From Dipteris shenzhenensis (taxonomy: Eukaryota), in assembly GCA_047967505.1 (NCBI GenBank), contig CM106538.1: 64,000 nucleotides of DNA; one strand, written 5' to 3'. Numbering within the stretch: position 1 is the first letter of the stretch; each line of letters opens with the position of its first letter. This document shows, in pieces, positions 21,101 through 37,327 of the stretch. Below the pieces are notes generated by a model. The model was not told where the DNA came from. It ran no database searches and was given only the letters and a program-made list of their open reading frames with translations. Both the position numbers and the translations under genes were made by a program.

Positions 21101-21674
21101 TTGAAGGATAACAACACCTTTATTCATATGGTTATAGTCCATGTACAGTATTGTATAAAGTGCAACAAGGATCAATTGTTGTTATGAGCTCTTGTAAGCG
21201 TCATCTTATTCATGTCTATGTTGGGCATAAACTTTCAAAATATGGACACTGCGAAATCAAAAATAAATGACCACCCCTGACATTTGTAGGGAGGATTGGG
21301 TCTGAGGCAATGAGAAAGCCGAGCCATCGAAAGCGAGCCAAGTACAAAGCCAAGCCATCGAAAGTGAGCCAAGTTATACAAGCACATAGATGTAAGTTCT
21401 GAAGTCTTTTCATTATTCTCACATTCTTGCTATTAATTGTACTTCCTGCCAAATTTATTAACTTCTTTGATTGTATAGTAGGATGAATGACTTAATAAAT
21501 TACATTATTGACTTCATTGTGCCATATCATGAACTTCAATGACATAACAAATTATTTGAGTAGCAAATACTACCATGAAGGAAAGCATTTGCATACAAGC
21601 AATAAAAGTTTGAATATTTCTAAACCTTTCTTACCTATTGCGATAAAAGCAAACAATCGAAGAAAGAAAACAAA

Positions 21675-24405
21675 CCATAAAATCCTCTCCATTCTCCATG
21701 AGATATCGATAAGGCACTCAGTCCCTCACGACTACATGCCATGAAACCTCCAAGCCCTGAACATGAATGTATCTCTCTAGACTATGTAATGCAAGGTCCT
21801 TCAAACAAAGATTGTGCCAACATGTTAGAAATACCCCTGAAATATCAAGCTTAAGCAAAATCTCATTCAATTGAGAGAGTGTGTTTAAAGTTCTTTTACC
21901 TACTACAAGAGGACATAAGAGAACCAACCATCCATCATCGCCGAGTGTAGAAGCTATTACACTAATACCATATCTAACATGGTCCTTTGTAACCTTATTC
22001 CATGTAGTAATCCCAACATGTCCCTCCATCAACAAACCCATAGGGAAGTCTAGCAGTATAAAGTCTGTAGCCCATTTTACTTTCCTACCCATCCTAGCAT
22101 AATCCTCCCCTTGCTAGCAAGTAAACTCTAAGAAAGAACTCATGTACCTTTGTGCAGAAATCATTCTTGCAAGAAAACTCCAAGAAAGAACTCATGTACC
22201 TTTGTGCAGAAATCATTCTTCTTGGTAGTAGAAAAATTTAATCCCATAGTAATGTAATCCCCTACCAGTGAACCAAACATAAAAATGTCTTCATGACCAT
22301 CCAAAGGTGATGGGGGGTGATATGAAAATGTGATGAAAATTTTCACCATTTTTGTTTAGATTTCTACCTGGAAGAGAAACCTCAATGACTGGTTCCTCAT
22401 CCCTAGTTTCATGAGGTGGAGTATCCACATCCTCTACTTCTATAAAATAGAGATTCCAATACTTTAGAATTGTAACTTCCATACATTTTTTCTACCAAGT
22501 AGGCTACAGACGATCTGAAAAGTCAATCTACCATGGGTAGTGACTAAGCTCCCACTGGTACAATCCATGCATGGTACTAGGGGACATGCAAGTGCTAGGG
22601 TTCTCTATCTCAAGCCATCCTTTGCATTGAGTAGGCATCTCAGTCAACCTGTTCTTCTTCAAAAGGTGCTTCAAGTACCTTCAATGTAGCAGAAGTTTAT
22701 TAATTACCAAATGGACAATATTTAGTTCTCTCTCAAAGAAAATACTTATAGATCATGCATAAGTATTTGAACACAACTCTTTGCATAGCCTGATTGATCT
22801 CTCTATAGCCCTCCTTGATGCATGTCTGTCTCCTCTCTTTGAACCTTTGATAAGGGTTTTGCTGTCACATGTCTTCAAAGAGGAGAATGTATGCTTCCTT
22901 CCCTCTAGCTTTAGGTATTGTTGGAGTTTATAATACGTAGGCAATACAAATGGATGGGTCATGACACTAAGGGCACACAAATCCTCAAGTGCCATGGTAG
23001 ATTGTTTCTCTATCTTCTCAAGGAAGATCTCCTTGGCAAGACACCTAAGATCATAAGAAATTGAGAGCCTTCTTTGGTGGCCCTTCCCGACAAAACATTA
23101 GGGGAGAAATGGGGTCTCAAAAGGGCTTTCATTACACAACAAGGCAAGAAATTGATTATAAAGAAACACCTTACCCTCTAAAGTTGTTGTCTCCTAAGGG
23201 CATGAAATACATATCCCTCATACTATTGTTTTCTTTAAGAAGAGACAATATCATTAGCTTCACAAATCTACAATGGATTCATGACCCTCATACCTCATAT
23301 TGAAGAACTTTGTCTTCCACACATCTCCCAGTTTGGGATCTAGACAATGAAGCACCCACAAAAAATTGAATGTAAGAAAATTTACAAAGTACAAGACTTA
23401 CCAAAAAATTAAAATTGCAAGTTCACATACCATTCCCATCCTGTCATAAAACTTCTTATGAATTCTCCCTCTTTCCTTGTGTTTTGCTTCTCCTCTGTTT
23501 TCCTGTAGTATTGTTTTTGCCACAATATCCAATGCTTGCTTCAACTTAAAGGTGTACTCCACCTTCAGCAAAAAAACAAAGCGTGAAGAATTTGCATGAA
23601 GATTAAGAAAAGTAATCATGATGTTTTGAATCAAATGAATTTTAAGTACGTAAAAAACAAGATGAGACAAAATCCGTTCTAATAAAGGAAACCATTTTTT
23701 CATCTCCTATGCAATGATGCATCCCTTGATCTGGACTTTTCAATCATTTGTTGTTGCTCCTTTGTCAAACTTTCATGAAGAATGTTAAATCCCACTTGCA
23801 AATGTTATTTGTATTGATAAGGGTATCCCGAATGCTTGGCTTACTTATTGCATGTTCATTCAATCTAAAATTCAAGAAGGAAGGAAAATATTTCACAAAT
23901 TCACTATCCACCTCCTTTCATACTTGTGACCATGTATTCACAACTGCACTTGTAACAGGACTCCCCTATCCATCACACTTGCACAAGGACACAATGAATG
24001 CCCCCTTCTCAGGCAAGTAACCCTCATACTTAAAAGCACTCTTTAGTGCAGATATGGTGCTTCTCAAACCCCTGGCCTGAGCATAAGGAATCAACCTACA
24101 AAGGGGGACCCTAGGACATTCATTAGATGCCCGTTGCACTTCTCAATCACACCTCCACCACTTACTATCTCCATGTCCATCTCAGCAAATTCATCCTCAT
24201 CTTCTTTTGCTTCAACTGAATGCCCAACTTTTGTGACTGAATGTTCCTCAAACACTTCTTTCTCCTCATTTACAAGGATATTAGGAGGTTGAAAACTTGA
24301 GCCTACAACAACTTGCTTCCCCCTTTCCTCACCATGAGGATGAACATCTAGATCCTTAGGATTAGGTCCTAGATTTAGAACCCTTTTTCTTGAACCCTTT
24401 GGCAT
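21675..24405 (-). pseudogene. Multi-exon gene: ParB/Srx-like N-terminal domain plus C-terminal N6A/N4C methyltransferase-like domain; degenerate
   Basis: ATG at 24405 after a TGTAG acceptor. VPLCRLIPYAQARGLRSTISALKSAFKYEGYLPEKGAFIVSL..DG..TWS..KEVDSEF at 23897-24109. Several GT-AG introns, including an in-frame 63-nt one at 21837-21899. DFILLDFPMG...TWN...LGDDGWLVLLCP resembles the D-PPY motif IV region of amino-MTases. Confidence 0.55.
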
Positions 24406-24932
24406 GTCTGCTACAACATGTGTGGAAAAAATGAACACAAATTTATAAGCAATGATTAATCATAGCATACTTAAACTAATGCAAGAACAAAAAAGGAAAG
24501 GAAATTACCATGAACCAAACATGAGTTGGGGGTAATGTAGAGGCCAAAAGCATGTACTTTTCATTCTTTTGGTCACAACACTACCCTCTCAATGAAGCTT
24601 CATATCAAGAAGTTTGCAACCTAGCCATTGCAACCTAGCCAACATGAATATAAGGCGTATAGGCATGCATAAACGTGTGAGTTGAGTGCAATGCATGAAC
24701 TTTCAGGAAGCTTTATGTCATACACTCCTTAGATGTTTTTGGCCTTAACATTGCCCTCTTAATGAAGCTTTTGGATTGCATATGCTTGCAGTTTCTTATG
24801 CATTCAATGCCATAAACATTTGCAAAGTACTCCAATGCCTTAAACAATTGCTTTTGGCATGCTCATGCTTTACATGTTTTTAAAGCCTGTAATGCCCGGA
24901 AGATAAACATAGTACCATACTAAGGATACCTT

Positions 24933-25024
24933 TTCATAGGCCAAAAGCATGCCTTCGCATGCTTTTGGGCTGCGTGTTAACACGTGGCCCAAAAGCATGC
25001 AAAGGCATGCTTTTTGCCTATGAA
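24933..25024. repeat. 92-bp near-perfect spacerless palindrome centred on GTTAAC
   Basis: TTCATAGGCCAAAAGCATGCCTTCGCATGCTTTTGGGCTGCGTGTT|AACACGTGGCCCAAAAGCATGCAAAGGCATGCTTTTTGCCTATGAA. Confidence 0.9.
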
Positions 25025-26022
25025 GTCATGCAAATTGAATTCCCAATCATGAACCAAAGATGCCCATTTTATTGCCCAAAAGCATGCTTTTAGTCCACGT
25101 GCTAACACACAATCCAAAGCATGCTTTTGGCCAATTATTAGACTTCCCAACATGCCTAGAAGACTGAGACATTGTAGCATACAAAGAAGACAATTTTACT
25201 GCCTTAGAAATTAAAGCAATGCAACAAGATTCATTCTCAGGCTCACTGGACATGTACTTTTCAAATGATTCATTAGATATACTATATTCAAATGATGAAG
25301 TATAGTAACATAGTAGACTCGGCTATTTGGGAATGTTATGAGTAAACAAAAGCATACTAAAGACCAACTATGAAACTGTGAGATGGTGAATCCTAGAGCA
25401 AAAATGTAAATAAGAAGGGGCTATGAGGTTAGTGCTCATGAAATGTAGAGCATTTGAAGCTCAATTGCAATGACATCACAACTGATAGCATGGATGTTTT
25501 TATCGAAACTATACTTATATATTAATATAAAATCATGGCGAAAGTTTATCGAGCTAGTTTTTCTAGTTTTATAATATTGATCGAACACAGTACAATTTTT
25601 TATAATTCTTTTGAATTTTGAAGAAAAAATTGTAAATCCTAGCAAAACTTGAAATTATGTCTCATAAAAGTTTCAAATCTTGGCGAATGTTTCACATCTT
25701 TATTTTTAATAGGGCATACAAAATTTCAACACCAATATAAAAGTTTTGCATGTTGCAGGAAAAAATCATCCAATCATGACTGATAGAAACAAAAGCAAAG
25801 CACATCTATAATTTAGAGGCATAAAATTCAGCAAATCTAAGAAGAGGCCTTTGCTATGACAATTGCATCTGATGAGATCATCTTGTGTGGCAACCACTAC
25901 TCAATGCTAAAATAGAGCCCCATTTGCATATTTCATCTGTGCTTTCCCATGGGCCACTTCTCAGAGTCGCCAGCACTTTGAGTGCATTTGGATCGCATGT
26001 TAACACGCGGTCCAAATGTTGT

Positions 26023-26143
26023 TTCTGCTGATTCTTCGTCTCTCTAGCAATGCCACCAAAAGAATGCACATTGAGTGCATTTGGACCGCGTGTTAGGTGG
26101 ATCCTTTTGGTGGCATTGCTAGAGAGAAGAAGAATCAGCAGAA
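26023..26143. repeat. Inverted repeat with 40-bp arms (1 mismatch) and a 41-nt loop
   Basis: 26023-26062 is the reverse complement of 26104-26143. Confidence 0.9.
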
Positions 26144-26253
26144 GCAGCATAGCCAAAAGATGAAAAAGAAGAAGAAGGAGCAGAAGACGAAGAAGAAGCA
26201 GCAACAGCGTTAGCAGTTAGCTGCCACCTCCTATTTGATTTCTTTACACTCTC

Positions 26254-26490: not shown

Positions 26491-28486
26491 TCTATCAATG
26501 GTAGAGATTTCCCTTAACATAGAACTCTTTCAGAATCCACTCTCCCCTTTGTGACTCATGTTATCACGTGTCATGTGAGTGTCTAGGTTCATTGTGCATT
26601 CATGGATGAATCTCTTCTTGTGGAGCTTCAGCTACAACAAGAAGAATAGTTTCTATTGTCCAATGACATGTGCAGACATGCCTCAAACTGTGAGACGATT
26701 CAACTCGTTGAGAACATTTGTTCGGCTCTCAAATTTTTCACTTGCTACACCTTATTTCATGCTTTTTTAGTTCTTCTCAAACCCCAGAGCCAAAAACCAA
26801 ATGAATTGGCATCGGCTTTACTTCATTCTTGGCTGTGGAACTCTTTTGTGGATTCGGTCATATGGTTTTCAATCTTTTGAAAATTGTCAAATTTAGTTTT
26901 GTGAATGAATCTAGATGTGTTGAAATCCTCCAACTCAATAGCATGTGATCATGCTAGAGGAGGAGAATTGCTTGGGCGACCAAGGCAACGCTTAGAGTCG
27001 TAAGAATATTATGGAACTTTGGAATTAGAAAAAGAAATGGGACTTTGGAAGAGAACTCTGTTGGGTGAGTAATTAGAAGAAGAAATGGGGCTTTGGAAGA
27101 GAACTCCATGTAACGAATTGCCAGAATAGCATTTTCGGCAAGCCTTTTATTTTATGACTTGTCCTATTGAAGGATATAAAGATGTTCTTTCTATTCAACC
27201 CATGAAAGCCACTCTAGCTAACTGAGCTTATACAAAATATGCTAGGTGCCATTCTATTGATCTTAAGGATGGGAAGCAACCCTTAACTTGTGAAGAGAAA
27301 GGAAAGCATGAATTCTTTTGGGCAAAGAAAAGAACATCTGACAACCACGAAGTAGAATAACACTAAAAGCTTGCAGCTTGGTTATTGCGTCCCCTGCTCA
27401 GTTGCCCTTTGTCTTGCTATTTCTCCTCTTTCATTGCTTCACCAACTTTGACACTACTCAACCTCCTCTTCTCCCCTAGCTACTTCCTCTCCTACCACAC
27501 TCTCATGCTCTTCGCCTTTAAGAGCTTCATCTATCCTCCCATCCTTGACGAGGGGGGCTTCAAAGCAATTCCAAACAAAGCATCCATTGTAAGTGCATTA
27601 AAAAGCTATCCAAATGCACTCATAGTGCATGCTTTTGTGGGCATTGCTGGCCTCTAAGAAATGCCAGGTTCAGTCCTTCATGACCGATATGGAAGGTAGC
27701 ATTTGCAAAATGGAAGTCGTACGTGATCAATAAAGTACCTGGGATCTCGACTTGTAGATGTTGCAAACTGATAAGGTGACCGTGAAAGGACGAGCTTAAC
27801 CGTGAGAGGACACTCAAAGACAAGTCTTCCGTGAGAGGAGCTTGAAGATGAGGCATCCATGAGGAGAAAAGCTCAAAGAAGAGGGCCATGAAGAGGAGGA
27901 GAGGAGGAGTCCATGAGGGAGAAGATCACATCATTGGCAAGAGGGCAGCAGTGAGGAGAAGAGGACAACAGTGAGGAGAGGGAAGCCTTGAGGAGAAGGC
28001 AACCATGAGGAGGAGTGGAGTGGAGTGGAATCAAGATGAGAAGGAGTGGAGTGGAGTGGCTTGGATGAACAATATTCCAAGAACTCTTCCTTCCATCAAT
28101 CAGCAATAGTTAGCATGCCATTTCCGAACATGATGATTGGCATGGCTAATTGATGGTATAACAATCAAGTAGATTGAGTGCACGGAGCCATCCCTTCAAG
28201 GCTTGGATTTTAATGTTGATATTATATCCATGCCTTGAAGTTCTATCATTTGTCAGTCATATGAGCTATTCATGTTAATATATATACATGGACTTATATA
28301 TGCTATAATATAGATGATTTTTATAAATGGGCTTACATATGGTATGATATATGGTCTAATGCATATGATCTAATATACATGTTAAATATTATGCACTCTT
28401 ATTCCTTCTTATTCACATGGACCTTTAGACAGTCATATAAACATGGACTTATGTTTTCATGTATAGATACATGTATTTATATGTGG

Positions 28487-28802: not shown

Positions 28803-29028
28803 TGTGGTATGGTATATACTCGTGGACTTATATCTTGACTCATAAAAATTGATCTAAGATATAATATGATCAAATATTTATGGACTCCTATTTATATGGA
28901 CTTATAGATGCTCTTATAAATATATAGATGGACTTATATGCACACAAGGACTTATGTATGTATATAGATACATCGATTTATATATGGTCTAGTCTATATT
29001 CATATATATAGATGGACTAAGATATATG

Positions 29029-31264
29029 CGTTGGGGAGGTGATCCTTGTAGGAGTGGTGTCATGTCTAAGGTTTAGAAACAGGCTTGTGATTAGTTGATG
29101 GGAGTAGTAGACACTTGGTCATTGGACCATGCATGAGGTGAATGAGGAAGTGGTGACACTTGGTGTAAAGAAGAGAAGCAACTAGACATTGCATCTCTGG
29201 CATTGCATGGTGGTGAACTCATGCGACTACATAGAGTTGCCTCTTGGGATAATGAACGTCTCTTTGTCCAGGCTATGAGCCTACGTAGTGTCACAACTTC
29301 GTGCTATAAGTATGTCTTCTAGGGTCCTTAGATGTGTCTTCTATTTTGTCAGTCGTAAGCCAACAAACTCAGTAGATTTGAGGCGCATATAATCTTGATA
29401 ATAAAAAGATCTCTTGTGTGTTATTTTTTATTCTCTCTTGATCATAATTTTGTGTTTGTAATTTAGGCTATTCTTATAGTGTATGTGAAGAGTGGATCTC
29501 ACTCTAAAATCCAATAGTTGGTATTAGAGCATGGTCGTGAGGATCCAGAAGAGAATTCATGAGCAAAGATAAAAAACTCGGTATAGGTGGTCTTGAGATT
29601 GATGGTCGTGTGCTGGTGTGGAAGTCAAAGAAGGCAAGGAGTAAAATTCATCATCGTTACAAATTTTCTCTAGTAGTACTAGCTACTGTATGCTCACAGT
29701 TGATTGAATCGGCTGGTGCATGCTAGAGAAGTGATATGGCATCATTGAAAAAGACAGAAACATCTGTCGTCAAGTTAACCGGGAGGAATTTTTCGAGCTC
29801 GCAGCTTTCAGCCAAGCTAGGGTACATGCATAAGGGCTTGTGGGAGGTTGTGTCTGGGACAGAGAAGGAACCGACTACAAGTGAAGATGAGAAGACAGTT
29901 TGGAGGAAGAACAACAACAAGGCGATTGGTATGATGGGACGACAAGCCTTGGGGGAAGAATATTTTCATCATCTAGAGATGACAAAGAGAGCAACAACAA
30001 AGTAGACGATTCTGGAGGCTTTGTTTGGGACCAAGATGCGACATTCCAAAGCTAATGTCAAGCAGCAACTATACGACCTGCATATGGGTGATAATGAGGA
30101 TCTAGCAACTTTTCTAAATCGCATGCAGACACTTTAAAGCAACTTCGAGAAATCGGTGCCAAAGTCAAGGACGATGATCAGAAGGCAATATTGTTAAAAA
30201 GTCTTCCTTCCAGGTTTAGTGAGATGGCGCTAATTTTGAGGATGGATGACGAAGTAGATTTTGTTGATTGTGTGGGACTTCTAAAGAGTGAAGAGAAATG
30301 TGAGGAAGATCTTTATGGTGGCGACACAACATTTATCATGAAGGATAGAAGAAATACGGGGAGAGACACTCGTGCATGTTATTATTGTGGCAAGTCTAGC
30401 CATATTGAGAGGTTTTGTATGAAGAAACAAAAAGATGAGGAAGCTAGAAAAGAAAACCATAAAGCTTGCACAGCCAAAGAGACAGTGATAGAGAAGATAG
30501 CCGGACTTGTCAGTGATGACATGCCTGACTAGGATTGGGCATTTCGATGATGGAATAGTTTGGCTACGATGCTAATCGGTAGGCTTTAATGCCAGTAAGA
30601 TTTAATGCAATGGAGCTACGATGCTGAAGAGTATTTTGTGTGGTGTGAATTTTTTTTGAAGTTCTGAGTGTTCGATTGTAATGGCAACAAGTCTGGTAGG
30701 AATGAGCCAAAGTTTTTTTGTTGTGTTTCACTGTTGACTCCCTATTCAGATCAAGGGAGGATGTTGGGGAGGTGATCCTTGTAGGAGTGGTGTCATGTCT
30801 AAGGTTTAGAGATAGTCTTGTGATTGGTTGATAGGAGTAGTAGACACTCAGTCATTGGACCATGCATGAGGTGAAACATGATTGGAGGAATGAGGACGTG
30901 GTGACACTTGGCATAAAGAAGAGAAGCAACTAGACGTTGCATCTCTGGCATTGCATGGTGGTAAACTCATGCAACTACATAGAGTCACCTCTTGGGATAA
31001 TGAATGTCTCTTTGTCCAAGCTATGAGCCTATGTAGTGTCGCAGCTTCGTGCTGTAAGTACGTCTTCTAGGGTCCTTAGATGTGTCTTTTATTTTGTCAA
31101 TTGTAAGCCAACAAACTCAATAGAGTTGAGGTGCATACAATCTTGATAATAAAGAGATCTCTTGTGTGTTATCTTTGATTCTCTCTTGATCGTAATTCTA
31201 TGTTTGTAATTAAGGCAATTCTTATAGTGTATGTGAAGAATGGATCTCACTCTAAAATCCAACA
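29029..31264 (+). mobile_element. Non-autonomous gag-only Copia-type LTR element (TR-GAG-like)
   Basis: LTRs at 29029-29516 and 30762-31264; TSD ATATG on both sides; PBS TGGTATTAGAGC (tRNA-Met type); PPT AAGGGAGGA. The internal region holds only gag (29736-30532, CYYCGKSSHIERFC). Confidence 0.92.
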
Positions 31265-32672
31265 ATATGGTCAAATATTTATGGATTGTTCTTTATATGG
31301 ACTTATAGATATTCTCATAAATATTTACATGGACTTATATATGGATATTTGCATAGATATATTATTGTGTATATAGACATATGGATGTACATATGGTCTA
31401 GTCTATATCCATATATACATGGATAGAAATGGTCTAATGTATATTCATATATATACATGGCTTGAAGTATCTTATCATGTTCAAGCATCTCCCCTTGGGT
31501 CTCATGAAGGAAAAAAGGTATACATCCCATATCCCATGCTAGAGGGGAGATTGGTTGAGTGGAGGTGTTCCTCATTAATCATGGATTTAGTGACTGATAG
31601 AGAGAGTGGAGGAGTTACCGACTCACACCATCAAATGTGTGATGGCAAATGAGTGCTATTTGTCATCTTCCATTAAATGCTAGGATTTGTGATCGTAGAA
31701 AGGTGGCGAGGTGGTGATCGAAATTGAGTAAGGAGTTCAAAGATAGAATTGAGAAAGCAAGGGCAGCAAATGCAAAGATTGTGAAAGAGGATATCATTAC
31801 CCCACATGAGGTTCATGTTTCGATTAAATACGAACTCCTAGGTCAATTTCAAGGGGCTTAAGTTATTCAGACACAATTGCAGAGTTCCCATGCTACACAT
31901 GCCCTGAGTTTAGTGAACATGATGTAAATAGAACAACTTATATTCTATTGAAACATATATACTATGCCTTCATTGTCATGCTAGGAATGAGTGCTACAGT
32001 CCATCAAATTATACATCAGGCTGCTCTCACAAGGTGGAGTTGTTGATGTACAATCTAAAAACATGGCTAAAAGACAAGTGTTTTTGGATAGAGCTTGAGA
32101 GATTTTATTGTCCAAATAGTATAAGTGAGAGTTTTCATGTGTAAGCACTAAATAATGATTTTGGTATTTGACTGCTCAAATGCTGTCATCTAATTTTGTA
32201 TATGAATAAGTAGCATGTTTCATGAAAATTTTTATGTGGGTTGGCAATTTGGCCTCTTCATTGGCTTATAGTAATTAAATTATTTAAGACTACTTTAATA
32301 CTTTGTGTTCTCTATTTCAAATTGTAATTGATTGACTTGGGTTTTCTGTGGCTCGTTTTTATTGCTCGGCTCACTTCCCACGGCTCGCTTTTTGGTAATC
32401 CTCATCAGGTCCTAACGGACCCTATGTCGCATCTCATGTCCATATTTTTACTCATATATCACATTTTTTCTTTTAAAAATTTGTAAAATGCTAGGATTCA
32501 AGTTCAATTTTGGGTAAATAGTTACGTGATCCACATCTCTCTCTACTGCAAATCTAGTTACAACTAAACATCCTTAATTAATTTTATTAGCCAAAAATTA
32601 AAGGCAACCTATGATCGTGATTCCCAACATTGAGATTAAGTGGAGTAGGTCTCTAAACGGGGCATGCTACTA

Positions 32673-33085: not shown

Positions 33086-34205
33086 CTAGTTACAACACTA
33101 GAGAAGGACACTCCTCTCATCTTTCTACAACAATATGAGGGCACTAATCGATCGCAAAGCAAACATGAATGCCCACATCAAGCAGAAGATTGGTATCGTA
33201 ATGTTTCTCCTGATGGGTGCGAATGCACGAAAGTCGAAGAATCGTGGAGCTCGTGTGAGGGCACGGAATCTTGGATCCAGTAGGAACGTCTGCCAGAAAC
33301 TTGGATTTGATAATTGGCCACGATGTGCGAGAGAATCACGGGGACTCACGAGGATTAAAGTTCTTGATCGGTAAGAGAATGCAATTGTATTATCAGGAGT
33401 CAGGTACTCCTTGGATTCGGGATATTGAAATGTCCGCGATGAACACAAGCAAGCGACCAAGGAGCTTGGAGGCATTGCAGAAGAACAGGAGACGGTGGAA
33501 ATTTTCACTTGTCTCCATGCATTTAATAGGAGTCGTCGAGAAAAGAGGGTCTTTTAAATCGTCTCTCCATTTGAGCTAGCACAAGTGTTCCAATGCACTC
33601 CCCCAATCTGTTCATATATCCACTTCCAAGCAATGGGGTAAAGGGCTCAAAGCTTTGAGGTCCTCCATATTTTGCATTAAATCGCATTCGTATTTCAGTT
33701 ATTTGCTCAGCGTTATCAATCATAGACCTGCTGGAAGGGAGCGTTTTCATTCAGAATTCAGGTCCAAAGTGGATGCTTTGAAGGTCCGCGGTTCCTGACA
33801 GTATCGTACCCAAATGGAGCGATATCATGCAGGCACAGCAGCGAGGTGCAGTGCCTCAACCCACCTCTACCTGTGGTTCTGCTGTAAGGCTTCCTTAATC
33901 AAAAGGGCACAAAATTTCGGCCCACAGAAGCCCAAAAGATCTCCCACCAGATTGCCCGTAGACTGTATCAGAAAATACGCCTCTTGGGCGAGCAGTACTC
34001 CAGGTCGTATAGGAAAACACGCTTATTGGTCGATAAGGTCCTTCATACAGAACGTGTCTCGACTTTTGCATTGCAGTTTTTTTATACATTGACCCTGTTT
34101 GTCTTCATGCTTGGGACGCTTTGCTTGATTGTGTTGCCTTTGCTGTACGTCTCTCTGCTGGGTCATGGGACCTTGCAAGCTGTAAATTAGCTCTCCACTT
34201 TGGTG

Positions 34206-37200
34206 ATGGCCCCGCAGCTTAGGCTGCCCCTCTGCCGCCAGTCCTTTGGTGCATGCTGGCTACATGGTGTCCACAAGCGGTTGGATCAGGTAAATGAGGT
34301 CGAGGAAAGATATCTCCGTGGAGTGGAACATTCACATAAGCCTCCTGTGTTCAAGATAAACAATTTGATCCATATGTATGTAAAACGTGGGAGCATGGTG
34401 GATGCTCGCCATGTGTTCGACAACATGGTAATACGAGATGTCGTATCATGGAACATTATGATTCTGGCATATGCTAAGCAGGACAACGGGACAGAGGCTT
34501 TGGCTTTGTATGCACGTATGTGCCAGGAAGGTGTCCAATTGAGTGACCGAACATTTGTTGGGGCATTAAAGGCTTGCAGTAGCCTGGCAGCACTGGATGG
34601 GGTGAAACAAGTTGATGAGCTCTCTGCAAGAACACGATTCCTGGAGAAAGGTAGAGCCATCCACTCCCGCATAGCAAAGAGTGGCTTTGAAGCAGATGTC
34701 TTTGTGGGAAACACTTTGGTGGATATGTACACAAAATGTGGCAGCTTGGAGGATGCACTGCGTGTCTTTCAGGAATTACCTCATCGTGATGTGGTTTCCT
34801 GGAATGCCATGATCCTGGGGTATGCCAAGCAGCAAGAGGGTCTATGTGCTTTGGAGTTATATGCACAGATGCATCAGAAAGGTGTCACACCAGATGATCG
34901 AACCTTTGTCGGCACGTTGAAGGCCTGCAGTAGCCTGGCTACCCTGGAAGAGGTGAAACAAGTTGATGCGAAATATAAGAAAATGGGTTGCCTGGAGAAA
35001 AGTAGAGCCGTCCACTCCCAGGTTGTTAAGAATGGATTTGAGTCACATGGATTCGTTGGAAACATTTTGGTGGATGTATACACAAAATGTGGGAGCATGG
35101 AGGATGCAAAGCGTGTCTTTGTTGAACTGCCTTTTCGTGATGTGGTTTCCTGGAGTGCCATGATCCAGGGTTATACCAAGCAAGAAGAAGGTGCACAGGC
35201 GTTGGAATGGTATGCACAGATGTATCATGAAGGAGTCCAACCAAATGAACGAACCTTTGTCAGTGCATTGAAGGCTTGTATCAGCCTGACAACCCTGCAG
35301 GAGGGGAATCAAGTTGTGAGGAAAGAATGCTTGGAGAAAGGTAAAGCCATCCACTCCCGAGTAGTAAAGTTTGGCTTGGAGTCAGATGTAGTCATGAAAA
35401 ACACTTTTGTGGATATGTACACAAAGTGTGGGAGCATGGAGGATGCACTCTGTCTCTTTGAAGAATTGTCCCATCCTGATGTGTTTACATGGACTACCAT
35501 GATCCTGGGGTATGCCAAGCAGGAACAGGGTGCATTGGCTTTAGATTTGTATTCACAGATCTTTGAGGGAGGTGTCACACCGGATAGTCGAACCTTTGTT
35601 GGTGTATTAAAGGCTTGCAGTAGCTTTGCAGCACTAGAAGATGGGAAACAAGGTGATGGGACACTAGAGAAAACAGGATACCTGAAGCAAGGTAGAGCGA
35701 TCCACTCTGAAGTAGCAAAATGTGGCTTTGAGTCAGATGTATATGTGGCAACCACCTTGGTGGATATGTATGCAAAATGTGGGAGCATGGAAGATGCACG
35801 GTGTGTATTTGATGAAGTGCCTCATTATAATGTGGTCGCCTGGAATGCCATAATCTTGGGGTATGCTAACCAGGAAGAGGGTGCCCTGGCTTTGGAGTCA
35901 TATACACAGATGCAGCAGGAAGGTTTGTTGTCGCATTGAAGGCTTGCAGTAGCCTGGCAGTACTGGAAGATGTGAAGCTAGTTAAAGGGAAATTTGAAAT
36001 AACAGGATGTTTGGAGAAAGGTAGAGCCATTCACTTTCAAATAGTAAAGAGTGGCTTGGAGTTAGATATATATGTGGGAAACACTTTGCTGGATATGTAT
36101 GTGAAATGTGGTAGTTTTGAGGATGCACGGTGCATTTTTGAAGAGTTGTCTTTTCGAAATGTTGTTGCGTGGACTACCATGATTATGGGTTATGCCAAGC
36201 AGGAAGAGGGTGCAATGGCATTGGATTTGTATGCACGGATGCACCAGGAAGGTGTCCGACCAAACGATCGAACCTTTGTTGGTGCTTTGAAGGCTTGCAG
36301 TACCCTCACAGCACTGGAGGAAAAGAAACAAATTCAGTGGATGTCTGTGAGAGCTGGATGTTTGGAGAAAGGTAGGGCCATCCACTCCCAAGTAGTAGGG
36401 AGTAATTTTGGTTCGGATGTGTTCTTGGCAACTGCCTTGGTGGAGATGTATGCAAAATGTAGGAGTCTGGAGGATGCACGGTGTGTCTTTGATGAATTGT
36501 GTCATCGTGATGTCGTTTCCTGGAATGCCATGATCTTGGGTTATGCTGAGCACGAAGACAGTGAGGAGGCCCTTAGGCTTTATGCACAAATGCAAGAGCA
36601 TGCTATTTCACCAGACAGCTTTACCTTTGTTGCTGTCCTGAAAGCTTGTGGCAATACAGCAGCCTGTGAAACTGCAAAAGAACTTCATTCTCATTTAAAC
36701 AGGGTTAGTATTGCATCTAATTCAATTGTGGCCACCAGTCTCATTGACATTTATGCTAAATTGGGGAGCATGTGTGATGCCCAATTGTTGTTTGATGCAT
36801 TACCCATGAGGAATGCTGTGCCTTGGAATGCATTGATAGCAGGATATGCCCGCCAGGGGGAGAGTGAACTCGTGTTTCATTTTGTTGAGAGAATGAGGCA
36901 GGAAAACATACTGCCAGATGGGGTTACCTTTCTTAGTATTCTTACTGTATGCAGTCATGTTGGTCTGGTGGATAAGGGTTTGACATACTTTCACACTATG
37001 AGCACACAGTACGGCATTAACTTAACTGTTGAGCACTATAATTGCATGGTTGATTTCCTTGGCCGTGCAGGTCAGGTTGAAGAGGCAGTGGAGATGGTGG
37101 AGGAGATGCCTTTCCAACCTAACGTGATTGTATGGTTAACCATATTGGGTGCTTGTCAAAAGTGGAAGAATGTAGAGGTTGGAAAGCATGCCTTTGAAAG

Positions 37201-37327
37201 TGTGATTATATTAGATGAAACACTTCCTACAGCATATGTCATAATGGCAAATATTTATGCAGACGCTCACATGCACAAGGACTATGATAACATCATTCAG
37301 GTAATGAGGAAGAATGCTCAAGAATAG
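34206..37327 (+). pseudogene. PLS-class pentatricopeptide repeat protein, E subgroup (organellar RNA-editing factor), frameshifted at ~35924; no DYW domain
   Basis: Repeated P-L-S triplets (DVVSWN.MI.GY / RTFVGALKAC / NTLVDMY.KCGS.EDA) in ORFs 34200-35939 and 35936-37327, ending P2-L2-S2-E1-E2 (HYNCMVDFLGRAG, WLTILGAC, AYVIMANIYA). The true start or an upstream exon is uncertain. Confidence 0.93.

Follow-up and report, generated by a model that had tools for sequence, protein, structure and literature searches.

Proteins that fuse a ParB domain to an N6/N4 amino-methyltransferase are common and enriched in phages (PMC12704722; published sources are cited here from the sections available to us). 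Eukaryotes have taken up prokaryotic amino-methyltransferases several times. A 2016 survey places such enzymes in six group-1 clades, none of which, in the sections available, is from a fern or another land plant, and the ParB-linked enzymes that it reports from eukaryotes are of the Dam type, in chlorophytes and chytrids (PMC4738411). Bdelloid rotifers carry N4CMT, an N4-cytosine DNA methyltransferase acquired horizontally from bacteria (PMC8885841; structure 8s9n), and Dam-type adenine methyltransferases are found inside retrotransposon polyproteins of unicellular eukaryotes (bioRxiv 10.64898/2026.05.21.726589). Here we analyse a gene remnant in a 64,000-nucleotide stretch of Dipteris shenzhenensis DNA (GenBank assembly GCA_047967505.1, contig CM106538.1), referred to below as the window, and compare it with these systems.

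The remnant lies on the minus strand at 24405–21637 and bears introns. We think it likely that it derives from a multicopy fern family in which a probable ParB/sulfiredoxin (Srx) domain is joined to a beta-class amino-methyltransferase, the window copy being a decayed, truncated pseudogene of that family. Intact members would be nuclear-type proteins of ~950–1000 residues. In the literature, we found no description of a fern ParB–methyltransferase family, although members from plants or ferns could appear in the supplementary tables of PMC4738411 and PMC12704722.

The remnant belongs to a multicopy fern gene family

A 131-residue piece translated from the minus-strand open reading frame (ORF) 21718–22113, which contains DFILLDFPMG..WN..LGDDGWLVLLCP, gave 35 protein matches at E ≤ 1e-3, eleven of them at E ≤ 1e-10, in a search of 1.84 billion representative sequences, with 54% identity to P0001 and 52% to P0002 (P and L numbers are our labels for proteins and loci). 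When fern proteins were aligned to the window by tblastn, collinear blocks running from 24118 to 21637 were obtained, equivalent to residues 102–794 of P0003 and separated by short non-matching gaps, so that homology to unannotated Adiantum proteins spans ~690 residues. The same proteins matched nowhere else in the 64 kb, and self-comparison of the window did not reveal a second gene copy. The homology alignment to P0003 and P0007 locates at least one clean intron, 105 nt long with canonical GT..AG ends, at 21903–21799. A first-pass annotation of the stretch had proposed a multi-exon, intron-bearing eukaryotic gene encoding the peptides VPLCRLIP.. and DFILLDFPMG..; both peptides are present in minus-strand ORFs, and the collinear blocks together with the intron bear out the gene structure. 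Chance ORFs were rejected on the homology statistics, and a retrocopy was rejected because introns are retained. The window pieces taken by themselves are less informative: seven ORFs matched no Pfam family, PF01555 included, the 131-residue piece found nothing relevant among PDB sequences, and its Atlas protein-language-model scores (0.80–0.86) fell below the bar.

Where the relatives carry names, all are 'hypothetical protein' of Adiantum capillus-veneris or A. nelumboides (9 of 10, 11 of 11 and 7 of 8 in three look-ups), and the remainder come from Logan, ENA and JGI assemblies. The most complete are P0037 (958 residues), P0041 (1008 residues), P0042 and P0055. The common architecture, drawn from family alignment A1 and a motif census, opens with an N-terminus that is basic and then acidic. 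It is followed by the ParB-like block I-P-L-C-R..V-R..L..L-K..F..E-G-Y..K-G.F, ~50 further residues and K-M-F-Y-V-W-E-G-N-H-R-T-A-S-W. A helical middle of ~350 residues contains W-Y-P-L-T and C-P-W-W-V-D-M-K-K-G. The C-terminal domain begins with D-[LFV]-P-[TF]-G and P.W-[ND]..L-T-E-D-H...D.G-W-L-L, and ~170 residues further on carries S-W-R-G..E-[KR]-S-P...L-E-x-G-x-G-T-x-P...T-G-R.C-L..D-N-D.

The family falls into at least seven subfamilies, with 22–50% identity between and 80–96% within them. Members occupy six distinct chromosome-scale contigs of A. capillus-veneris, and P0040–P0044, which are 81–96% identical, lie on five different contigs of A. nelumboides. Gene models are often truncated or fragmentary, and the P0023 model is fused to a retrotransposon gag domain recognised by Pfam.

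Two further observations concern individual members. The near-identical P0041–P0044, on different contigs, have in common a LEA_4-like Ala/Lys-rich N-terminal extension (Pfam E 3e-4 to 4e-3, below threshold), which is either a piece of a captured gene that has spread together with them or an artefact that recurs in the annotation. L042, a 3701-bp metagenome contig of whole-genome-shotgun type, is a true full-family member: it matches residues 64–846 of P0041 at 52–65% identity with only short gaps between blocks, which indicates that some copies have few or very short introns.

The C-terminal domain has a beta-class methyltransferase fold

The motifs of the C-terminal domain are circularly permuted, with motif IV ahead of motif I, the S-adenosylmethionine (SAM) loop. 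As the catalytic-type motif stands upstream of the glycine-rich SAM loop, the order is that of beta-class amino-methyltransferases. The AlphaFold model of P0037, built from a 38-row alignment, is poor overall (mean predicted local distance difference test, pLDDT, 55), and it is confident over residues 260–460, 610–740 and 820–880; residues 739–816, the would-be target-recognition element, are below 50. A Foldseek search of the PDB with this model gave 41 matches at E ≤ 1e-3, and all of the matches listed to rank 42 (E ≤ 1.3e-3) are N6-adenine or N4-cytosine DNA methyltransferases, among them M1.HpyAVI (2e-6), CcrM, M.BceJIV, Mbo45V Mod, TTHA0409, M.MboIIA, bdelloid N4CMT, M.PvuII and M.RsrI. 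In the BFVD viral library, the matches were N4/N6 methylases of phages and pandoraviruses, plus a phage 'ParB/Sulfiredoxin' protein. The model thus shows a class I fold with the permuted order IV–VIII, target-recognition region, X, I–III, as in PF01555-type enzymes, and at the family level it supports assignment of the domain to the beta-class N6-adenine/N4-cytosine DNA methyltransferases.

Sequence comparison with phages points the same way, though less strongly. When P0037 was searched by tblastn against 50,697 phage records, 27 records (several of them GenBank/RefSeq duplicates) matched at E 0.06 to 10, all within residues 780–939, and 25 of the 27 matches coincide with the C-terminal ends of genes annotated as methyltransferases. 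All nine phage proteins that were fetched pass the Pfam threshold for PF01555, and two of the nine are ParB_N+PF01555 fusions. Alignment of the fern family to these nine by hhalign gave a probability of 94.4% (E 8.7e-8) over motifs X-I-III, and a domain-only run gave 95.2%, with motifs IV and I each aligned to their phage counterparts (E ~3e-8 to 9e-8 overall). The profile phrog_3008, 'DNA methyltransferase', was matched at E 7.5e-4. Motif I with the acidic motif II/III region reads L-E-x-G-x-G-T-x-P ... D-N-D, apart from minor deviations in individual copies, in the 13 members that extend this far; G-x-G-T-x-P is present in most of them, its first Gly and its Pro are invariant, and all 13 retain the SAM-binding motif. 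The fern motif I aligns with motif I of the phage PF01555 proteins and of SAM methyltransferases in the PDB.

Several results weigh against this assignment. PF01555 was not matched at E ≤ 0.01 in 16 members, nor at E ≤ 1 in ten further ones, and no Pfam family reached E ≤ 0.01 on the ParB-like or the methyltransferase part of any member scanned, the only match in the 16-member scan being the gag domain of P0023. By Pfam's own threshold, therefore, the family belongs to neither PF01555 nor ParB_N. The hhalign score comes mostly from motifs X-I-III, the N-terminal half of the methyltransferase domain giving a probability of 3% when aligned alone, and the phage set was chosen through weak matches to that same stretch, which introduces a selection bias. 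NCBIfam returned weak motif-I methyltransferase matches only. A PDB sequence-profile search returned three matches only, but all are to SAM methyltransferases at motif I (E 0.09–3.5), in weak agreement with the assignment. A PDB search with alignment A1 gave one irrelevant match, the profile having collapsed to 280 positions. Even so, the amino-methyltransferase-like domain proposed in the first-pass annotation is borne out at the family level by Foldseek, the phage tblastn matches, hhalign and motif order, and the relatives examined for the SAM-binding motif retain it.

The enzyme might methylate RNA or protein instead of DNA, with an N-terminal domain that is a nucleoside triphosphate-binding module unrelated to DNA, as in sulfiredoxin/SerK. 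In favour of such a role, the ParB-CTPase fold doubles as an ATP-binding module in non-DNA enzymes (PMC12704722), and RNA is the predicted substrate of some eukaryotic permuted amino-methyltransferase clades (PMC4738411). The eleven best structural matches are nevertheless all DNA methyltransferases, with the RNA-acting MT-A70 enzymes ranking lower, and the closest sequence matches are to phage DNA methyltransferases; we therefore hold this alternative to be improbable.

Motif IV retains its Asp and second Pro

The departure of motif IV from the canonical (D/N/S)PP(Y/F/W) also counts against a working methyltransferase. In the family, the motif is D-[LFV]-P-[T/F/..]-G: Asp is present in 33 of 34 sequences and the second Pro in all 34, the first Pro is lost in all, and the fourth position holds Thr (16 sequences), Phe (14) or another residue (four). 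The window copy has D-F-P-M-G. Two of the nine phage proteins that pass PF01555 show a similar change, D-L-P-F-G in Aeromonas phage LPM4 and D-I-P-Y-G in Citrobacter phage phiNP. Both are adenine methyltransferases by annotation only, so loss of the first proline does occur in annotated adenine methyltransferases.

It had been suggested that the protein is a catalytically dead reader, since DFPM replaces DPPY. More broadly, intact members could be inactive and act as SAM- or DNA-binding readers or scaffolds, with a motif IV that lacks the first Pro and often the aromatic residue, much as a degenerate motif IV is found in inactive partners of the related MT-A70 clade, e.g. METTL14 (PMC4738411). 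The near-universal Asp and second Pro, the phage DLPFG and DIPYG precedents, the SAM motif kept in every member that reaches it and the conserved acidic motif II/III region weaken this suggestion. Judged from the motifs, some members, chiefly those of the Thr-type subfamilies, could be inactive, but inactivity does not explain the data best, and for intact members as a whole we consider it rather unlikely. The reading that we prefer is that intact members may be active, the N-terminal domain binding or loading on DNA and the C-terminal domain then methylating N6-adenine or N4-cytosine of that DNA.

The N-terminal domain probably belongs to the ParB/Srx superfamily

The N-terminal domain probably belongs to the ParB/Srx superfamily, as the first-pass annotation proposed. 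In the Atlas search, residues 98–275 of P0037 scored 0.90 against a cluster labelled 'ParB N-terminal domain' (5 of the 30 nearest clusters) and 0.95 to DUF3723 clusters (16 of 30), with clusters of cnidarian and mollusc proteins also close. The Atlas structure model of residues 99–275 gave template modelling (TM) scores of 0.49–0.56 to bacterial ParB_N/DndB clusters, from a model that is itself poor (predicted TM-score, pTM, 0.32), and the match to the phage 'ParB/Sulfiredoxin' protein in BFVD has a long alignment. Members of the superfamily carry a GxxR-type signature, GERR in ParB and DGQHR in DndB-like proteins. The fern E-G-N-H-R resembles it. An EGNHR-type block was found in all 37 sequences of the wider alignment A5, in which E-G-N-H-R is invariant, and ten long fern members have EGNHR, EGNNR, EGNHH or DGNRR at this position; the DGNHR-like motif for which intact copies were examined is thus present.

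Other searches count against the assignment. ParB_N was unmatched in Pfam in all members scanned, where DUF6824 appeared at E 0.04–0.13 only; the A5 alignment of 37 sequences had no match as a PDB sequence profile and no relevant Pfam family. Alignment by hhalign to two phage ParB_N domains gave probabilities of 0.07–0.2%, from a thin template of two sequences. The AlphaFold model of P0037 has pLDDT 24–69 over the ParB-like part, and a second model, of P0051 from a 16-row alignment, has mean pLDDT 40.2 and pTM 0.26. With the Atlas scores and the invariant EGNHR on one side and Pfam, the PDB profile, hhalign and the AlphaFold models on the other, the proposal is plausible and unproven.

A metagenome scan with a distant ParB-like relative gave 33 loci, of which 32 have the ParB-like part only and one, L042, is the full-family member described above. 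Twenty-nine of the 32 were seen by tblastn with fern proteins and three with the scan query only. In none of these 32 did the downstream sequence show homology to the middle or methyltransferase parts of the fern proteins, and 23 downstream ORFs had no Pfam family. The ParB-like domain therefore also exists in other architectures. The predicted proteins P0068–P0096 (L010–L041), of ~150–250 residues and from environmental assemblies, carry the fern-type ParB-like domain with the same 50-residue insert at 31–36% identity. This clade has an invariant PLCR..VR..W..W..MF.VWEGNHR..W, all its proteins end in ..NAMNDINW, and the contigs reach 4.2 kb.

The window copy is a decayed pseudogene

The window copy is a decayed, 3'-truncated pseudogene, incapable of encoding a working protein. 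All its parts are on the minus strand. The 5' part of exon 1 (24091–24405) is a frame of 105 codons that begins with the ATG at 24405 and encodes a basic KGSRKR stretch followed by an acidic region, a composition similar to the N-termini of P0037, P0033 and P0050. It ends in a stop through a frameshift, located in 24142–24091, relative to the next part. That part, the first half of the ParB-like domain (23891–24142; VPLCRLIP..R..LKSAF..EGY..G.FIVSL ... EVDSEF), is 48% identical to residues 102–232 of P0003 by tblastn and includes the stop-to-stop ORF 23966–24142, which contains VPLCRLIPYAQARGLRSTISALKSAFKYEGYLPEKGAFIVSL. Two in-frame stops interrupt it, at 23968–23966 and at 23920–23918, where relatives have Trp.

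At approximately 23866–23897, a deletion junction with a 32-nt GT..AG remnant replaces ~50–60 residues that relatives have here, including KMFYVWEGNHR. The deletion of the segment expected to hold the ParB DG.HR motif, placed at ~23897 by the first-pass annotation, was confirmed by tblastn and by alignment to P0021, P0019, P0037 and others, relative to which K-M-F-Y-V-W-E-G-N-H-R is missing from ~23897–23866. The Adiantum gene model P0003 is without the same EGNHR segment.

Exon remnants that encode the last part of the ParB-like domain and the first part of the helical middle (RLNEHAISKPSIRD.., KKWFPLLER.., KVEYTFKLK..DRMGM, LDPKLGDVW..) follow at 23263–23865, recognised by tblastn to P0003, P0007 and P0021. 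Those for the rest of the middle region, at 22516–23260, include the conserved C/Y-P-W-W-x-D block, interrupted by a stop at 22530–22528 where relatives have the Trp of C-P-W-W. The exon directly preceding the methyltransferase core (22182–22355; ..GDYITMG..KNDFCTKVHEFF) was placed by tblastn homology. A 52-bp tandem duplication, 94% identical, lies at 22114–22217 within the exon encoding KNDFCTKVHEFF and shifts the reading frame. The methyltransferase exon (21904–22101) holds the motif IV-like D-F-P-M-G and the W-N..H..D-D-G-W-L-V block; it is recognised by its identity to P0001 and P0002, and the relatives' model matches beta-class DNA methyltransferases. Beyond the 105-nt intron, the last retained exon (21637–21798; ..LERYIHVQGLEV..) has a stop at 21720–21718 where relatives carry Arg/Lys, and homology ends at 21637. 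The ~150 C-terminal residues with the SAM-binding motif, encoded by the motif X-I-III exons, were not found in the 21.6 kb downstream.

The four in-frame stops, all at codons conserved in relatives, the frameshift, the 52-bp duplication and the absent EGNHR segment and SAM-binding exons mean that no working protein can be made. Compared with the residues of the relatives, G-to-A or C-to-T substitutions account for three of the four stops, as would fit a methylated repeat that decayed through deamination.

Transposon carriage is not shown at the window locus

According to the first-pass annotation, the gene is cargo of an element that has inverted ends. Inverted repeats with one arm on each side of the gene were not found within 10–33 kb, and the best inverted pair is a 30-bp, AT-rich match of 87% identity (E 0.015). 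Nor was a transposase or recombinase found among 118 ORFs of at least 55 residues in the flanks (12.9–21.7 kb and 24.4–34 kb), which gave copia gag fragments only; the larger ORFs of the window are pentatricopeptide repeat (PPR) genes and long terminal repeat (LTR) retrotransposon genes. Transposon carriage is thus not shown at this locus, and what stands of the cargo proposal is multiplicity at the family level: in Adiantum, the family is multicopy and dispersed and includes near-identical copies, as expected of transposon cargo.

Upstream of the gene, eight copies of the 12-mer CCAAAAGCATGC in both orientations are clustered at 24544–25130, 140–725 bp from the ATG. The window as a whole has ten matches to this 12-mer, compared with 0.55 expected. 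With its complement, CCAAAAGCATGC forms palindromes around a GCATGC core at 24941–24968, 24989–25016, 25076–25093 and 25113–25130, one of them an exact 12+4+12 palindrome and another 18 bp long and near-perfect. These palindromes may represent subterminal repeats of a transposon, elements of a promoter or sites to which the encoded protein binds. Related inverted repeats of the CCAAATGCACTCA type occur at 25973–26150 and 27598–27648.

Quite possibly, if tentatively, the family is a cargo or accessory gene of a DNA transposon, the CCAAAAGCATGC palindromes being its subterminal or protein-binding repeats and the window locus a broken, partly deleted insertion. The near-identical P0040–P0044 on their five contigs, the many truncated models and the gag fusion of P0023 are in keeping with this, and the LEA-like extension common to four of these five proteins suggests a larger duplicated unit. 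Retained introns imply copying at the DNA level, and the surroundings are rich in transposable elements. Short repeats in both orientations, such as the eight 12-mers within 590 bp, are known from the subterminal regions of CACTA, hAT and Mutator elements. The missing inverted repeats and transposase speak against transposon cargo, however, as do the lack of a second copy in the window and the presence of CCAAAAGCATGC repeats on one side only.

With somewhat more doubt attached, the family could be an ordinary host family, a domesticated, horizontally acquired methyltransferase multiplied by segmental duplication, and the window locus a dead duplicate unrelated to any mobile element. Deep subfamilies that share conserved motifs at 22–50% identity suggest long-term selection on the protein, the basic N-terminus and the long conserved middle region look host-adapted and nuclear, and transposon hallmarks were not found in the window. 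Recent near-identical dispersed copies, fragments and chimeric models are, however, more typical of repeats. The named members all come from a single fern genus, which is unusual for a housekeeping gene, but few annotated fern proteomes are in the database.

Other features of the window

The window is plant nuclear DNA, in which copia- and gypsy-type retrotransposon fragments are abundant. Two adjoining ORFs of PPR repeats, 582 and 485 residues long and the second ending in an E motif, lie at 34191–37327 on the plus strand; they are probably one frameshift-interrupted PPR-E gene of the organellar RNA-editing type, or else two adjacent genes. Direct repeats at 28863–29439 and 30763–31340, 87–94% identical in pieces, flank copia-type gag fragments at 29727–30529 and lie within ATATGGACTTATA-like minisatellite arrays. 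Repeats and gag fragments together (28863–31340) are possibly the remains of a small LTR element.

Discussion

Enzymatic writing of N6-methyladenine (6mA) and N4-methylcytosine (4mC) in land plants is disputed. To our knowledge, the eukaryotic writers are MT-A70 enzymes, bdelloid N4CMT and the Dam-type domains of protist retrotransposons. The family analysed here would add a multicopy vascular-plant family with a phage/bacterial beta-class methyltransferase fold, a SAM motif and a probable ParB-type fusion, a kind that we did not find described for land plants. It is a concrete candidate enzyme for DNA amino-methylation in ferns and would add to the cases in which eukaryotic repeats have acquired DNA-modification genes from prokaryotes. 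As a dead copy, the window locus is of interest only because it leads to the family.

As to origin, we consider it most likely that a phage or bacterial ParB–N6/N4 methyltransferase fusion entered a fern lineage and afterwards gained introns and the long linker. Because the copies retain introns, its later multiplication would have taken place at the DNA level. A far more speculative reading, to which we give little weight, is that of a mobile or selfish fern DNA element whose ParB-type loader docks on putative parS-like CCAAAAGCATGC..GCATGCTTTTGG sites and whose phage-derived methyltransferase writes a mark other than 5-methylcytosine. If this were true, the mark on the element's DNA would escape or redirect host silencing by cytosine methylation. 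If, in addition, the ParB-like domain were related to DUF3723 of Starships, eukaryotic DNA elements would have ParB-like modules as a recurring accessory.

We know of no DUF3723 protein with a methyltransferase domain. DUF3723 (PF12520) is a conserved cargo gene of the fungal Starship giant transposons (PMC9156397), and the ParB-like part of P0037 resembles it by language-model features only, the 0.95 score given above; PF12520 was not matched in family members by Pfam at E ≤ 1, and no text linking DUF3723 with ParB was found in the literature.

The phage fusions of ParB_N and N6_N4_Mtase (PF02195 and PF01555; NatCom Heliusvirales L005 and L009) have the same order of parts as the fern proteins, and the motif X-I-III stretch aligns with them at 27% identity (hhalign 94–95%). 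In contrast to the phage proteins, the fern proteins are about twice as long, with a helical insert of ~350 residues between the domains and one of ~50 residues inside the ParB-like domain. The fern genes are nuclear, intron-bearing and present in many copies, their motif IV is D-x-P-x-G and not DPPY, and they fall below both Pfam thresholds. Compared with the solved beta-class enzymes M.MboIIA, CcrM, M.BceJIV, M1.HpyAVI, M.RsrI and M.PvuII, the fern proteins are only 9–16% identical and have a non-canonical motif IV.

N4CMT is fused to a chromodomain. Unlike the fern family, it has no ParB-like fusion and a low copy number, and its activity has been demonstrated, whereas that of the fern family is predicted from sequence and model. 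The Dam-type retrotransposon enzymes are, as far as the available sections describe them, like the fern family in being prokaryote-type DNA amino-methyltransferases in multicopy eukaryotic entities. The portions of text available from that preprint (bioRxiv 10.64898/2026.05.21.726589) contain neither the word 'ParB' nor a plant or fern case. The fern enzyme differs in being beta-class and encoded by an intron-bearing gene to which transposition machinery was not found linked. N4CMT and the Dam domains of protist retrotransposons are the nearest functional precedents for the fern family.

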